Shown here in pieces: positions 3,944 through 16,344 of a DNA stretch of 34,536 nt (positions are counted from its first letter, which is position 1; each line of letters opens with the position of its first letter). The notes under the pieces are model-generated. The model saw only the letters and a program-made list of their open reading frames with translations. It was not told where the DNA came from and did no database searches. Both the position numbers and the translations under genes were made by a program. Location of the stretch: positions 1 to 34,536 of the IMG/VR virus record IMGVR_UViG_3300037067_027639. One strand, written 5' to 3'. Source of the DNA: a virus.

Positions 3944-4134
3944 ACAGCAGGGAATCAAGGATCGAGAGATGGATTGCGAAACAGAAAATGGGGGCGACGT
4001 TCAAGACCGCCGAGCTGGCAAAAGAACTGAATTACGACCCCAAGACGGTCGGCCGGGTCATCGGGAAACAGCCGAACATTAAAGGCCACCACATTAGGGG
4101 ATCCTGTCATATCTGGGAGGTTGTTGCAACATGA
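3940..4134 (+). CDS. Small winged-HTH protein, 64 aa
   Basis: GTGA overlap; FKTAELAKELNYDPKTVGRVI HTH pattern followed by beta-wing. Confidence 0.75.
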   Translation: MNSRESRIERWIAKQKMGATFKTAELAKELNYDPKTVGRVIGKQPNIKGHHIRGSCHIWEVVAT

Positions 4135-11688: not shown

Positions 11689-12273
11689 ATGGCAGACCAT
11701 CCGTCCGTCACGGCATCAGCAATCCCCCCGTCATCGGGCGGCCACTGGGAAGGCGAATACTGGGTCGATGGCGACTACCGCGTGCACCGGAAATGGTGCG
11801 ACCACTACCCGCAGTACTACGGCCCGTGTGCAATTGACCCGGACCATGGCCAGGGAGATATCGAGCTGGACGACGCCCTTGCAAAAGCCCTTGCCAAAAT
11901 CGACGGGTACGGTGGCGTGGGGTCCACCAGCGGAGAACGGCACTGCTTCCAGGCAGCGTTCCTCCTGGCACACAACTTTGTCGAATCCTCGGCAGACATC
12001 CCCCCCGTCCCCAAATTCTGGCTTGACGAGGCCCACTACTGGATGAGCGGCATCACTGCAGGGCGACTCCTGAAAAAACAGAAGACCGCAGAGCAGAAGC
12101 AGGAGGTTGCGGAGACCGCCCTCGAAACCCTCACAACCTGGGGCGGCCTCATCTGGTCGAACAAGGAGACCAGGGCAAAAGTCGCCGGTCTCGTGACCTC
12201 CGCACTCGTGGCCGGGGGGATTGCCATCCCGCCGCTCGTGCAGGCCATCCTGAACTTCATGGGGGCGACGTAA
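11689..12273 (+). CDS. His/Cys-rich protein with C-terminal membrane segment, 194 aa
   Basis: ATG 11689 after GGGGTGA, in frame with track ORF 11527..12273; C-terminal VAGLVTSALVAGGIAIPPLVQAIL. Confidence 0.75.
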   Translation: MADHPSVTASAIPPSSGGHWEGEYWVDGDYRVHRKWCDHYPQYYGPCAIDPDHGQGDIELDDALAKALAKIDGYGGVGSTSGERHCFQAAFLLAHNFVESSADIPPVPKFWLDEAHYWMSGITAGRLLKKQKTAEQKQEVAETALETLTTWGGLIWSNKETRAKVAGLVTSALVAGGIAIPPLVQAILNFMGAT

Positions 12274-12275
12274 GA

Positions 12276-12362
12276 ATGTCCCGGGCCGACAAGGTCGCGT
12301 ATGCCATCTGCATCATCGTGATCGTTGCCGGCCTGGTCTATCTCTGGAGGTATTGCAAGTGA
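12276..12362 (+). CDS. Single-pass membrane micro-peptide, 28 aa
   Basis: Hand translation MSRADKVAYAICIIVIVAGLVYLWRYCK, starting 2 nt after the previous stop. Confidence 0.5.
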   Translation: MSRADKVAYAICIIVIVAGLVYLWRYCK

Positions 12363-12731
12363 ACAACAACGGGGCCGCGTTCCACTCGGAAAGACACATC
12401 CTTTCAGGGATCCATTCTCCCGCTCATCCCGGGCCGGCCCCATTCCCCCAACGGCAGCAGTTTCCATCATCCACCTTATCACGCTGCTGCCTGCGGGGAT
12501 TTTATCACTCTCAAACGGCTGCCAGAGGGTCACCGGGCTCACTGTCGTCCCGGGGCAGCCAGTCACCCGGCCGGGTAATAATCGTACAGAATCGTGAATG
12601 CCATGCCTCAGGTACTCGATTTCATAATCTAACCTCCGTGAAGGGAACCCTCTCAAGTCTCTCATCATCCGGGATAATTGAGCATCAATAAACTCCCCAG
12701 GCCGGGACCGATCACCTCCTGAAAAAACAAA
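12363..12731 (+). ncRNA. Candidate structured non-coding RNA or long tRNA leader
   Basis: No convincing ORF; stems GGCAGCAG(12453-60)/CTGCTGCC(12484-91) with outer TCCCC/GGGGA, and GGCTGCC(12517-23)/GGCAGCC(12554-60) with inner CCGGG/CCCGG. Confidence 0.4.
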
Positions 12732-12813
12732 ACCGCCGTAGCTCAGTCAGGTAGAGCGCCTCGTCCCTACTATGTGGGGGAGGACGTCGCGAGTTCAAAT
12801 CTCGCTGGCGGTA
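12732..12813 (+). tRNA. tRNA-like element with extended, anticodon-less arm (isotype undetermined, possibly pseudo-tRNA)
   Basis: Acceptor ACCGCCG/TGGCGGT + A; D stem GCTC/GAGC; T stem GCGAG/CTCGC with TTCAAAT loop; 5-nt variable loop; anticodon arm 25 nt instead of 17; no encoded CCA. Confidence 0.8.
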
Positions 12814-12816
12814 TCA

Positions 12817-13047
12817 ATGAACACGCTCCAGGGCCCCACCCTTTCAGATGCAAAAGGCGAGCGGCGGATCCGCAAACTGGAAGACACCCGGCTCAACATC
12901 TGGGTCGCCATCCTTGCCGCCATGGACAAGGTGGGCTGCATCGACCACGAGATCGCGGTGCTCCGCGAGGACCTTGAGGTGGGGCGGCTGCAGGCCCTGG
13001 TGGACCGGCCGGACCTGGGCGAGCTCAGGAAGGAGGCGTGGCTGTGA
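12817..13047 (+). CDS. Hypothetical protein, 76 aa
   Basis: ATG 3 nt after the tRNA-like discriminator, in frame with track ORF 12772..13047; stop overlaps next GTG. Confidence 0.65.
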   Translation: MNTLQGPTLSDAKGERRIRKLEDTRLNIWVAILAAMDKVGCIDHEIAVLREDLEVGRLQALVDRPDLGELRKEAWL

Positions 13048-14276
13048 AAAAAAAGGAACTGAAAAACGTCCCGATCACCTCCCTGGTCCCATACCAGAAG
13101 AAACTCCACGACACGAGCAAGGCGGTTCCCGATATCGCCCACTCCCTGGAAAAATTCGAGTACGTCAAGATCTCGGTCGTTGTCGATGAAAACCTGCAGG
13201 TCATCTGCGGACAGGGCGTCCTGAAAGCGATGGAGGAGATCGGGTGGGAAAAAGTCCCGGAGGTCACCCAGGTCATCGGAATGCCCGAGACGCTCAAGCG
13301 GGAATACCGGATAGCGGATAACCAGGCTGGCAGCCGCTCGAAATGGAACCCCGAAGACCTCCTCAAGGAAATCGAAGAGATCAAGCTCGATGACCCGGCC
13401 TTCCAGGTGGACGACATCGCGTTTGACCAGCGGGACCTGGACCAGATGCTCCACGACCTGGAAGACGAGAAGACCGAAGAGGACGACTTCGACCCCGCCA
13501 CCATCCGGCCCACGGACATCAAGTACGGCGATATCTATCAGCTGGGTCCCCACCGGCTCATGTGTGGGGATGCCACAAAACCCGAGGACCTGCAGAAGCT
13601 CCTGGACGGCCGTCAGACTCACCTGGTCTTCACGGATCCCCCGTATAACGTCGACTATACCGGCAAGACAAAGGACGCCCTCAAAATCGCCAACGACCAC
13701 ATGACCGAGTCGGAATTCTATAAGTTCCTGCTGCAGGCGTACCGGTGCATGTTCGACGCCTGCATGCCCGGGGCCCCCATCTATGTCTGCCATTCGGACT
13801 CTGAAACCCTCGCCTTCCGGCAGGCGTTCAAGGAAGCCGGCTGGGAGCTGAAGCAGTGCATCATCTGGGTGAAAGACCAGTTCGTTCTCGGCCGGCAGGA
13901 CTACCACTGGCAGCACGAGCCCATCCTGGAAGGATGCAAGGGGCACGAGCCGGTCCTTTACGGGTGGAAAGGTGGCAAGGCCCACCGCTGGTTCGGAGGC
14001 CGGAACAAGAGCACAGTCTGGGAAATCCCGAAGCCTGCCCGTAATGCCGAACACCCGACAATGAAACCGATCGAGCTGGTGGCCCGGGCCGTGAAGAACT
14101 CCTCGGTCAAGGGCAACGTGGTCCTGGACCCGTTCGGGGGCCTCGGGTCCACTCTCATGGCCTGCGAACAGACCGGCCGGATCTGCTGCACGAGCGAGCT
14201 GGGCCCGCACTACTGCCAGGGCATCATTGACCGATGGGAAAAATTCACTGGCAAGACTGCGGAGAAGGTCGCCTGA
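13044..14276 (+). CDS. ParB-like N-terminal domain plus N6/N4 DNA methyltransferase, about 410 aa (alternative start 13038)
   Basis: VVVDENLQVICGQG..YRIADN (ParB-like); HRLMCGDAT, VFTDPPYNV, HPTMKPIELV, VLDPFGGLGST; classic position before terminase. Confidence 0.92.
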   Translation: MKKKELKNVPITSLVPYQKKLHDTSKAVPDIAHSLEKFEYVKISVVVDENLQVICGQGVLKAMEEIGWEKVPEVTQVIGMPETLKREYRIADNQAGSRSKWNPEDLLKEIEEIKLDDPAFQVDDIAFDQRDLDQMLHDLEDEKTEEDDFDPATIRPTDIKYGDIYQLGPHRLMCGDATKPEDLQKLLDGRQTHLVFTDPPYNVDYTGKTKDALKIANDHMTESEFYKFLLQAYRCMFDACMPGAPIYVCHSDSETLAFRQAFKEAGWELKQCIIWVKDQFVLGRQDYHWQHEPILEGCKGHEPVLYGWKGGKAHRWFGGRNKSTVWEIPKPARNAEHPTMKPIELVARAVKNSSVKGNVVLDPFGGLGSTLMACEQTGRICCTSELGPHYCQGIIDRWEKFTGKTAEKVA

Positions 14277-14782
14277 TGGTCCGGAAGAAACCCGCCGCGA
14301 AGAAGAAGACGGCGCCGGCAAAAATCAGGAAGACCCGGGGCGCACCGACCAAGTACGACCCCGACATTCACCCGATAAAAGGGTGGACCCTGGCACAGAA
14401 AGGCTGCATCAACAAAGAGATCGCGGCCGGACTCAGAATTTCAACAGCCACGCTCGCCTCCTGGGTAAAAAAATTCCCGGAATTCCTGAGTGCCATTAAG
14501 GAGGGCAAGGAAGTCGCGGATGGAAAGGTCGCCAAGGCCCTGTATAAACGGGCGATCGGGTATAAGATTCCCGAGAAGAAAGTCACCCAGAACGCCGACG
14601 GGAGTATCCGGAAAGAAGTCACCGAGAAAGAAATCAGCCCTGACGTCACCGCGATCAAGTTCTGGCTTACCAACCGGGACCCGGAGAACTGGAAGGACAA
14701 GGTCGACCACGAGATCGGTGGCAAGGACGGGAAACCCATCGCGGTCAAGGTCCTCCGCGGCGTTAGCATGGAGGACCTATGA
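14276..14782 (+). CDS. terS: Terminase small subunit, 168 aa
   Basis: TGATG overlap; GAPTKY..NKEIAAGLRISTATLASW HTH, VAKALYKRAIGY, PDVTAIKFWLTNR; directly upstream of TerL. Confidence 0.85.
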   Translation: MVRKKPAAKKKTAPAKIRKTRGAPTKYDPDIHPIKGWTLAQKGCINKEIAAGLRISTATLASWVKKFPEFLSAIKEGKEVADGKVAKALYKRAIGYKIPEKKVTQNADGSIRKEVTEKEISPDVTAIKFWLTNRDPENWKDKVDHEIGGKDGKPIAVKVLRGVSMEDL

Positions 14783-16344
14783 GCATGGCCGCCCCCGCCC
14801 CCTCATCCCCCTGGGTGATCGTCGAGCTCCCGGAAGGTGCAGCGCAGGGGTTCCAGCCATACGGCGGCGGTCTCGCGCTCTGGAAATACAAAGGCCCTGA
14901 AGTCATCATCAGCGGCCCGGCCGAGACTGGCAAGACCCGCACGGCCCTGGAAAAACTCGACACGCTCCTTTGGAAATACCCGGGATCGCAGGCAATCATC
15001 GTCCGGAAAACCTACAAGAGCCTGAAGACTTCGGTGCTCCTGACCTACGAGCGCAAGGTCCTCGGGGCCTGGAACAAAGACGGCACCACCACGATCCGGG
15101 ACGACGCGGGGCGGGTCATCAAGACGCTCAAGGGGGCATTCGACCAGAGCAAAACCCCGGTCGTGAAACTCGGAGGGGAGCACGTTGAGGGATACGTGTA
15201 CCCGAACGGCAGCCGCATCTTCCTCGGGGGCATGGACGTACCGCAGAAGGTCCTCTCGTCCGAATGGGATTTCGTCTATGTCAACCAGGCGGAAGAGCTC
15301 GACCTCAACGATTGGGAAATCATCAGCACCAGGACCACGGGCCGGGCGGGAAACTCTCCTTATGCCCAGATGATAGCGGACTGCAACCCGGACCGCCCCA
15401 CCCACTGGATCCTCTCCCGCCCCACGCTCAAGGTAATCGAGAGCCGGCATGAAGACAATCCGACGCTGTTCAACCAGGTAACCGGGGCCATCACCGAGCA
15501 GGGCAAGCGCACACTGGCGGTCCTTGATGCACTCACGGGCGTCAGGAAACTCCGGCTCCGACACGGCAAATGGGTAGCTGCGGAAGGTGTCGTGTACGAA
15601 GACTGGGACCGGTCCATCCACCTCATTGACCCGTTCCCGATTCCGGACACCTGGATCCGCATTCGGGCGATCGACTTCGGGTATACCAACCCGTTCGTCT
15701 GTCAATGGTTGGCGATCGACGGCGACGGCCGGATCTATCTCTATCGGGAGATCTACATGAGCCGGCTTCTGGTGGAGGACGCAGCGGCACAGATCAACAC
15801 GCTGTCATGCGCAGGACCGTCAAAGGTAGCCGTCACATGCCCCGTGTGTGGCACCCCCAACAAACCCGGGGTTGACCATTGCGAGAACTGCGGTCAACCG
15901 TGGATGGAAGATATCTACGCGACAATCGCCGACCACGACGCAGAAGACAGGGCAACCCTTGAGCGGCACGGGATCCCCACCGTTGCTGCGATGAAGGCAG
16001 TTTCCCCGGGTATCCAGGCAGTCCAGTCCCGGCTCCGGAAAGCCGGTGATGGCAAGCCCCGCCTCTTCGTCTTTCGTGGTGCCCTTGTCGATGTGGACCC
16101 GACCCTCCGCGAGGCCCACAAACCGGTATGCACCGAGGAAGAATGGGACTCGTATATCTGGAGACCGACGACGAGCGGCCCGAACAAGGAAGAACCGCTC
16201 AAGAAAGACGATCACGGGATGGACACGCTCCGTTATGCGGTCGCGTTCGTCGATGGCGTGACGGCCGGAGACGAGACAACAGAAGAGACTGTGACGGTGT
16301 TTGACGATGACGGAAGCGGGTATGGCGGGATCAGTCCCGTATGA
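14779..16344 (+). CDS. terL: Terminase large subunit, 521 aa
   Basis: Walker A SGPAETGKT, Walker B region YVNQAEE, DCNP coupling motif, nuclease IDFGYTNP and DDHGMDTLRY. Confidence 0.95.
   Translation: MSMAAPAPSSPWVIVELPEGAAQGFQPYGGGLALWKYKGPEVIISGPAETGKTRTALEKLDTLLWKYPGSQAIIVRKTYKSLKTSVLLTYERKVLGAWNKDGTTTIRDDAGRVIKTLKGAFDQSKTPVVKLGGEHVEGYVYPNGSRIFLGGMDVPQKVLSSEWDFVYVNQAEELDLNDWEIISTRTTGRAGNSPYAQMIADCNPDRPTHWILSRPTLKVIESRHEDNPTLFNQVTGAITEQGKRTLAVLDALTGVRKLRLRHGKWVAAEGVVYEDWDRSIHLIDPFPIPDTWIRIRAIDFGYTNPFVCQWLAIDGDGRIYLYREIYMSRLLVEDAAAQINTLSCAGPSKVAVTCPVCGTPNKPGVDHCENCGQPWMEDIYATIADHDAEDRATLERHGIPTVAAMKAVSPGIQAVQSRLRKAGDGKPRLFVFRGALVDVDPTLREAHKPVCTEEEWDSYIWRPTTSGPNKEEPLKKDDHGMDTLRYAVAFVDGVTAGDETTEETVTVFDDDGSGYGGISPV

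Follow-up and report, generated by a model that had tools for sequence, protein, structure and literature searches.

A tRNA-shaped element before the late operon of an archaeal virus: a candidate processing signal with exchangeable cassettes

We found a tRNA-shaped element 3 nt ahead of the first start codon of the late (packaging) operon in a tailed virus or provirus whose host is a methanogenic archaeon. Comparison with relatives leads us to favor, with moderate confidence, its reading as a t-element, that is, as a tRNA-shaped processing signal rather than a decoder, which would yield a nearly leaderless late mRNA. Related viruses and proviruses carry 17 distinct elements, all at the same junction between leader and first ORF, in six architectures that range from a near-normal cloverleaf to a bare minihelix of acceptor stem and T arm. 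Between relatives the cassette sequence is exchanged, but its position is conserved.

The stretch of DNA analyzed here, 34,536 nt long and called the window below, occupies positions 2–34537 of a contig of 54.7 kb that belongs to a 3.1-Mb archaeal MAG. We did not find mcrA in the window's own MAG; same-genus complete genomes carry it, so we take the host to be a methanogen. The host MAG contains an archaeal RNase P RNA (212.7 bits) and an RNase Z (305.6 bits, above the cut-off).

The element, its leader and its operon

Positions 12732–12813 (+ strand, as are all parts of the element and its leader) are a full-length match to the Rfam tRNA family RF00005, scoring 49.1 bits against a gathering score of 29 (E 9.7e-08). 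The minimum free energy (MFE) fold of the element alone is a cloverleaf (−35.3 kcal/mol, z −2.67), with 3 of 200 shuffles as good, and the identical cloverleaf formed when a 454-nt context was folded. Coordinates of the sub-parts were verified letter by letter. The acceptor stem pairs its 5' strand (12732–12738) with its 3' strand (12806–12812) through 7 pairs. By Rfam alignment and fold, the D arm (12741–12757) has a 4-bp stem and a 9-nt loop that includes the GG of the tRNA elbow. A variable loop of 5 nt (12784–12788, by Rfam alignment) is followed by the T arm (12789–12805), with its 5-bp stem and 7-nt T-loop, and by an unpaired discriminator A at 12813, after which no CCA is encoded. The structural features of a t-element are thus all present in the window: an acceptor/T-arm stack of ∼12 bp, T54, C56 and A58, an unpaired discriminator and an unencoded CCA.

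The 7-bp acceptor stem, D arm, T arm and T-loop consensus of a canonical tRNA are likewise present. Absent from the element is the canonical anticodon arm, with its 5-bp stem and 7-nt loop bearing U33, anticodon and R37. The place of this 17-nt arm is taken by a 25-nt arm (12759–12783, by Rfam alignment and fold), and the Rfam alignment puts 17 nt into the anticodon-loop region where the model expects 9. The arm consists of an outer helix of 4 bp (12759–62/12780–83), a GU bulge (12763–64), an inner helix of 6 bp (12765–70/12774–79) and a loop of 3 nt (12771–73). A preliminary description, made from the sequence of the window, had claimed a tRNA mimic just before the packaging operon with acceptor, D and T arms and variable loop intact and with just this fold of the extended arm; the Rfam match and the MFE fold bear it out on each count. 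It had, however, run the feature to 12819, which takes in the spacer and the ATG, the RNA element itself ending at 12813.

The odd arm is not an assembly error, since it was reproduced in two independent assemblies. It is identical in locus L144, from an independent Logan assembly, and differs by one loop base in L067, from an ENA assembly. The L144 element as a whole has a single change relative to the window, in which G-U at acceptor pair 7:66 becomes G-C. L067, the closest homologue, keeps the long arm and has the same change at 7:66. Its acceptor pair 4:69 is also swapped from G-C to C-G, a compensatory change; in addition, the discriminator differs and the variable loop is shorter.

Three nucleotides, TCA (12814–12816), separate the discriminator from the ATG at 12817. 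This ATG is taken as the true start because the N-termini of 12 homologues align there. It opens a conserved 76-aa ORF (12817–13047, + strand) that belongs to no Pfam family and is the first of the packaging operon. A DNA methyltransferase gene (13038–14276) follows, then a 182-aa ORF without a Pfam match (14234–14782), taken to be the small terminase by position only, and the gene for the large terminase (14779–16344). Judged by position only, a 618-aa ORF downstream of the large terminase, also without a Pfam match, is possibly the portal gene; also encoded downstream are a capsid protein (Phage_capsid_4, 7.9e-38) and a minor tail protein domain. No Shine-Dalgarno motif precedes ATG 12817, whereas many genes internal to the window are preceded, at normal spacing, by GGAGG-type sites.

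Upstream of the element lies a structured non-coding leader of 369 nt (12363–12731) that is conserved and aligns across all cassette types. The leader starts just past the stop (12362) of an ORF for a hydrophobic 28-aa peptide; its last part is an A-rich (A/U-rich) single-stranded linker (12720–12731) that abuts the element. Compensatory changes between types were seen in three of its helices: 12453–60/12484–91; 12517–23/12554–60, which encloses an inner helix and a conserved loop (12538–47); and a long-range helix, 12566–72/12700–06, that ends ∼25 nt before the element. The tRNA-like element is the 3' domain of this larger structured leader, an arrangement that the preliminary description had missed. 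The leader matched no Rfam family and is an uncharacterized RNA in its own right. The search with the leader also returned YrlA (Y RNA-like), which at 16.9 bits against a gathering score of 69 we regard as noise.

Exchange of cassettes around a shared core

We traced relatives through homologues of the 76-aa ORF and of the leader in viral contigs, ENA, JGI and Logan assemblies, and host-family proviruses. The six architectures are termed types A to F. Type A, a full cloverleaf with the 25-nt arm, is that of the window, L144 and L067. Type B (L003, L148, L146, L145, L280, L285) is a four-helix cloverleaf in which a 6-bp hairpin stands for the D arm and an 8-bp arm with a 16–22-nt loop stands for the anticodon arm. 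Type C (L002) is a near-canonical cloverleaf whose 7-nt loop reads AGU; in its relative L131 a GAAA tetraloop takes the place of that loop. Type D (L075) combines an acceptor stem and a T arm with one small hairpin, and type F (L137, L139) is likewise made of acceptor stem, one hairpin and T arm, in a sequence unlike that of type D. Type E (the L068 group, L088, L097, L132) consists of nothing but acceptor stem and T arm, connected by a linker of 15 nt.

Exchange is clearest in L003, a viral contig whose terminase is 96% identical to that of the window. The two align at ∼87% nucleotide identity over 12273–16344, and the flanks of the element align base for base, yet in place of the window's element L003 has an unrelated tRNA-like sequence. 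The downstream side varies as well. Depending on the genome, the first ORF encodes the 76-aa protein, one of several small Cys-rich ORF products or a ∼130-aa protein that has a winged-helix look when its translation is judged by eye. The tight junction of element and start is retained irrespective of which first ORF follows: the spacer from discriminator to start is 1–7 nt in the 15 tabulated elements and in L280 and L285, and mostly begins with U. The lone exception is L139, whose 15-nt spacer contains its own ribosome-binding site, AGGTGA.

Common to all types are a 7-bp acceptor helix stacked directly on a 5-bp T stem, a 7-nt T-loop and an unpaired discriminator, and in no element is CCA encoded. 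For RNase P and RNase Z, this shared core is the minimal substrate. G53:C61, T54, C56 and A58 are invariant in 15 of 15 tabulated elements, among which there are 13 different acceptor helices. Acceptor positions are nonetheless paired in 96% of cases, against 64% when partners were shuffled among sequences, and none of 5000 shuffles reached 96%; the sole systematic acceptor mismatch is at 7:66 in type B. Of the 25 pairs that RNAalifold gave for type B, 8 show double compensatory changes, and these 8 are distributed among all four helices. In these comparisons structure rather than sequence is conserved, and the covariation looked for in a t-element is found. With the compensatory swap in L067, the type B changes agree with the earlier suggestion of selection for shape rather than decay; random decay of all arms in the homologues, which would have spoken the other way, is contradicted by the compensatory changes and the conserved arm.

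We estimated how often such a minihelix arises by chance: ∼10 non-tRNA matches to the search criteria were found in 6.2 Mb of host sequence, both strands included. A minihelix within ∼150 nt of the same junction in every such locus is far beyond chance. The module is not universal, since three more distant relatives of the 76-aa ORF (L133, L134, L136) have no element in the 330 nt upstream and yielded none in the minihelix scan. In proviruses the element is internal, for example in L132, which lies in a complete genome.

General searches recovered few of these loci. Distant blastn of 12600–13100 against a phage GenBank collection gave no match; Rfam at the gathering score gave no hit in 13 related loci, the other cassette types falling below the tRNA threshold; and ARAGORN, run on 60 terminase-related loci, called L002 alone. 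A metagenome scan with the 76-aa ORF returned nothing beyond a contig already known, and two scans of genome contigs returned bacterial terminase relatives only. A pattern built on the 3' helix of the leader made 40 matches in viral contigs, 3 of them real (L088, L097, L104). A looser leader pattern made at least 120, all due to chance among the matches listed, and a tighter one added a single new true locus, L280. BLAST with the leader in 228 host-family genomes added one new usable locus, L285.

For the window's cassette an origin can be suggested. A run of 27 nt, comprising the 3' side of the anticodon stem together with variable loop and T arm, is 96% identical to the tRNA-Thr(GGU) of the host genus, and the T arm is identical. 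The acceptor stem is unlike that of tRNA-Thr(GGU), and the 7-nt anticodon loop is replaced in the element by a re-paired 15-nt insert. The D arm is nearer to the tRNA-Lys(UUU) of the host order; the acceptor stem matches neither Thr nor Lys, and no host tRNA was found to match both halves of the element. The cassette probably descended, to judge by these similarities, from a tRNA-Thr-like gene, and type A resembles a gene derived from tRNA-Thr in which a self-pairing stretch of 15 nt has taken the place of the anticodon loop. A normal tRNA-Thr followed by the same six bases was noted on host contig C118; we regard this as coincidence, the contig being, as judged by eye, of low G+C and bacterial style.

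Types A and B have in common a heptamer, ACUNUGU, at the apex of the long arm (12769–12775 in the window). No RNA partner complementary to it was found in cis. Such elaborate arms with a shared heptamer would be superfluous for a pure cutting signal, so a second function is possible in these two types.

A candidate processing pathway and its alternatives

In the proposed pathway, leader, element and operon would be transcribed together. Host RNase P would cut directly 5' of 12732 and so release the leader, and host RNase Z, for which a mature 5' end is required, would then cut after the discriminator A at 12813. The resulting late mRNA would have a 5' UTR of 3 nt (UCA-AUG), of which the TCA spacer is the whole, and, without a Shine-Dalgarno sequence, would be translated as a leaderless mRNA. 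A free tRNA-like by-product of ∼82 nt would remain, perhaps with a separate use. The genomic position, between the A/U-rich linker that follows the leader and a start codon 1–7 nt away, would suit a t-element whose ends are also those of the functional RNAs on either side. The acceptor stem and T arm alone would be required; the rest of the cassette, including the 25-nt arm, would vary between lineages. Should transcription start inside the leader or at the element, the RNase P role would fall away.

We favor the t-element reading because the core common to the types is the minimal RNase P/RNase Z substrate and the host encodes both enzymes. A tRNA-like shape alone is no guarantee of processing, since selected tRNA-like elements encoded in the Haloferax genome, other than the 5S one, reportedly remained uncleaved in vitro in the 2012 work of Hoelzle et al. 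A methanomicrobial RNase Z cuts just 3' of the discriminator and tolerates loss of the D, anticodon or T arm, needing the acceptor stem and a mature 5' end (PMC7479834). In Haloferax, RNase P and tRNase Z cleave t-elements in vivo, and the 5S rRNA owes its 5' end to one such element (PMC4326828, PMC4946936). In plant mitochondria, t-elements set mRNA 5' ends via RNase Z (PMC1920247). Of the two functions put forward in the preliminary description, tRNA punctuation that leaves a nearly leaderless late mRNA is the one that the comparative data support best.

A more elaborate version, which we consider unlikely, would make the whole a modular late-gene switch, in which a conserved leader is combined with an exchangeable tRNA-mimic cassette and the host's tRNA-processing enzymes license late translation. 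The excised mimic, bearing at its long-arm apex a heptamer found in otherwise unrelated types, would then be a further product and might, for instance, serve as decoy or cofactor for some host or viral factor that binds tRNA.

Other readings keep the RNA but assign it a different job. The fold might stay uncleaved on the mRNA, as a shield against 5'-to-3' exonucleases, a platform to which a host or viral protein binds, or a translational switch by which the start codon is hidden or exposed. Membership in a larger leader with covarying helices would suit this, as would the extra arms and apical heptamer of types A and B, which suggest recognition beyond RNase P and RNase Z. We nevertheless hold it to be rather improbable: the sole features common to the six types are exactly those of the RNase P/RNase Z substrate, and initiation would be poor at a start codon that lacks a Shine-Dalgarno sequence and lies 4 nt from a stacked helix of 12 bp, unless the helix were removed. 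Alternatively, a released tRNA mimic, a stable small RNA that is possibly CCA-tailed, could act in trans as a decoy or cofactor for host factors that bind tRNA, for example tRNA-targeting defense nucleases, synthetases or modification enzymes, its position serving expression only. Swapping of the cassette between flanks that are ∼87% identical is a pattern also seen at diversifying or arms-race loci, and the arms of types A and B are structurally conserved. This account leaves unexplained, however, the spacing of 1–7 nt to the start codon across unrelated first ORFs. Nor can an anticodon-directed decoy, the other function proposed in the preliminary description (for anticodon nucleases or synthetases), be the function the types share, given that an anticodon arm is missing from types D, E and F, with the D arm also missing from the bare minihelices, and that L131 has a GAAA tetraloop. 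As the main explanation we give a trans-acting role little credence; it is compatible with the processing model as an added function, and an uncleaved 5' module is possible in the same capacity.

Two further readings, one at the level of DNA and one that makes the element a tRNA gene, strike us as very improbable. The element might be the attP of a provirus that integrates into tRNA genes, as its stretch of near-identity to the host-genus tRNA-Thr(GGU) would suggest, or the pac or cos site of the adjoining terminase module, since it lies just upstream of the terminase genes. Yet the 3' acceptor strand differs from that of four host-genus tRNA-Thr(GGU) genes (alignment read by eye), so recombination at the element would not rebuild tRNA-Thr, and the 5' acceptor strand is kept complementary by compensatory changes, a mark of selection on RNA folding as opposed to DNA identity. 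In proviruses such as L132 the element lies inside rather than at a border; no integrase family was found in the ORFs scanned; and a host tRNA-Leu (contig positions 34555–34640), beyond the far end of the window, is not repeated inside the contig. The invariant T-loop bases and G53:C61 are features of tRNA, not of a pac site. That the element is instead a working tRNA, through removal of an 8-nt insert or unusual decoding, or else a decaying tRNA pseudogene, meets with equally little favor. It does pass the Rfam tRNA threshold, and when every 8-nt excision was enumerated, a formal deletion (12762/3 to 12769/70) was the only kind to restore a 5-bp stem, with U33, R37 and anticodon GUG in a 7-nt loop; the result for L067 is the same (read by eye). 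Splice-site geometry was judged by hand on the MFE fold: one cut site would fall at the 2-nt bulge and the other, across a 6-bp helix and on the wrong strand, in the apical loop, and there is neither a bulge-helix-bulge, with its 3-nt bulges 4 bp apart, nor a bulge-helix-loop. The GUG anticodon would specify tRNA-His, the identity marks of which are G-1 and C73; the element has A at both −1 and 73. ARAGORN, recommended as a check in the preliminary description, returned only forced and mutually exclusive calls, Pyl(CUA) or, when introns were allowed, Ser(ACU) with a 2-nt 'intron'. Among the sister cassettes at the same site are some that have no anticodon arm, and against pseudogene decay stand the compensatory changes and the conserved arm. 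Kinship with the 3' tRNA-like structures of plant RNA viruses was also considered and rejected, the present element being internal, 5' of an operon, in a DNA virus, and having an ordinary acceptor helix and no CCA.

Relation to known tRNA-like signals

We know of no established natural t-element linked to an mRNA in archaea, and a full-text literature search for tRNA-like elements or t-elements of archaeal viruses found no paper. That tRNA-like structures can act as processing signals is already established. In plant mitochondria the 5' end of cox1 mRNA is made by an RNase Z cut after a t-element (Forner et al. 2007, PMC1920247), and the t-elements there resemble ours in being non-canonical cloverleaves or acceptor/T-arm modules with a conserved T-loop, placed directly at the 5' or 3' ends of mRNAs (PMC1920247). 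They differ in belonging to an organelle and in lying tens to hundreds of nucleotides from the start codon, rather than 1–7 nt; cassette exchange and the tie to a structured leader are particular to the present system. The 5S t-element of Haloferax volcanii is archaeal, is cut by RNase P and tRNase Z in vivo and sets the 5' end of the downstream RNA, and an engineered H. volcanii t-element has been used to release crRNAs (PMC4326828, PMC4946936). In Haloferax, by contrast, the downstream RNA is rRNA or an artificial crRNA rather than an mRNA, and the element is cellular, single and fixed.

Eukaryotes and their viruses offer further parallels. In the mascRNA of MALAT1 and MEN-beta, RNase P sets the 3' end of the upstream RNA and RNase Z releases a small tRNA-like RNA. 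Like the present element, it is a tRNA-like module with no working anticodon at the 3' end of a long structured RNA; unlike it, it belongs to a eukaryotic nuclear lncRNA with nothing translated downstream, where here an operon mRNA follows. Host RNase P and RNase Z are also directed by tRNA units in mitochondrial tRNA punctuation and in the tRNA-linked microRNA precursors of murine gammaherpesvirus 68, but those units are real tRNAs or pol III tRNA-like promoter units, whereas the elements described here are anticodon-less, highly variable and from an archaeal virus. To call this an undescribed system, as the preliminary description did, is therefore too strong, t-elements and mascRNA being known; its setting and arrangement are new. 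What is new, specifically, is the domain of the host, the placement before a viral late operon, a spacing close to zero that would make the mRNA leaderless, the exchange of cassettes and the coupling to a conserved structured leader.

In Haloferax, compact and portable modules of this sort already serve as tools, and the present ones could do so for methanogens. The exchangeable cassettes amount to a natural mutagenesis series for the requirements of archaeal RNase P and RNase Z in vivo. Cleavage, if confirmed by transcript mapping, would make this the first natural mRNA 5' end in archaea or an archaeal virus to be made by the tRNA-processing machinery. It would also reveal a natural route to leaderless mRNAs that is independent of the position of the transcription start. 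Finally, if this reading is right, the 'odd tRNAs' and 'tRNA pseudogenes' that tRNA finders report in viruses can be processing signals rather than decoders, which would bear on how viral tRNA content is annotated and on claims of codon-usage compensation and stop-codon suppression.

Leader RNA and neighbouring reading frames

The tRNA-like element directly before the first ORF of the late operon is itself preceded by a conserved non-coding leader of ∼370 nt (window positions 12363–12731). Three or more covarying helices lie in the leader, including a long-range pairing between 12566–72 and 12700–06, and among relatives it was found 5′ of all cassette types, the different tRNA-like elements occupying this junction. 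It matched no Rfam family. The leader probably represents a cis-regulatory or non-coding RNA belonging to the late operon that has not been described before.

Within the leader, a 10-mer at 12710–12719 matches the 3′ end of 16S rRNA, an anti-Shine-Dalgarno sequence, at every position. This 10-mer is kept in the leaders of type A (the cassette of the window) and type B (a four-helix cloverleaf), but is absent from the aligned leaders of type E, a bare acceptor stem and T arm (L068, L078, L088 and L132), and is therefore dispensable for the tRNA-like module.

Two ORFs border or overlap the leader. The first (12276–12362) encodes a hydrophobic product of 28 aa with a single predicted membrane helix, and its stop falls just where the leader begins; reading of the aligned nucleotides placed it also in the type B locus L003 and the type E locus L132. 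The second, a 210-aa ORF on the minus strand (12036–12668), covers the leader and overlaps its conserved structured RNA; it had no Pfam match and is probably spurious.

tRNA genes in the host assembly

A tRNA-Leu(CAG) gene of the archaeal host lies 18 nt past the window end, on the minus strand of contig C21 (34555–34640). We found no repeat of this gene of 16 nt or longer elsewhere on C21, and no integrase family among the ORFs scanned. The gene is likely an integration target or the provirus boundary.

A normal tRNA-Thr(UGU) gene was noted on contig C118 (5569–5642) of the host genome assembly. Its six trailing bases resemble the window junction, a likeness that we take as coincidence. By eye, the sequence of C118 seems poor in G+C and bacterial in character, and it may be contamination of this metagenome-assembled genome.

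Variation among the tRNA-like elements

Cassette types A and B, otherwise unrelated, have in common a heptamer, ACUNUGU, at the apex of the long arm. It occurs at 12769–12775 in the window, at 3986–3992 in L003, and also in L145, L146 and L280; L285 has a variant. A search of the same loci for complementary sequence found none. The heptamer may be a protein-binding site.

In the provirus L139 the element (1111–1185) is followed by 15 nt containing the ribosome-binding site AGGTGA, and then by ATG. With L139 as the exception, leaderless mRNA would not arise from every member of the element group.

Sister cassettes in L002 (448–524) and L131 (1022–1093) differ in one arm: in L002 its 7-nt loop reads AGU; in L131 the loop is a GAAA tetraloop. 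A34, as in the L002 loop, is uncommon in archaeal tRNAs. Together the pair looks like a snapshot of anticodon loss.
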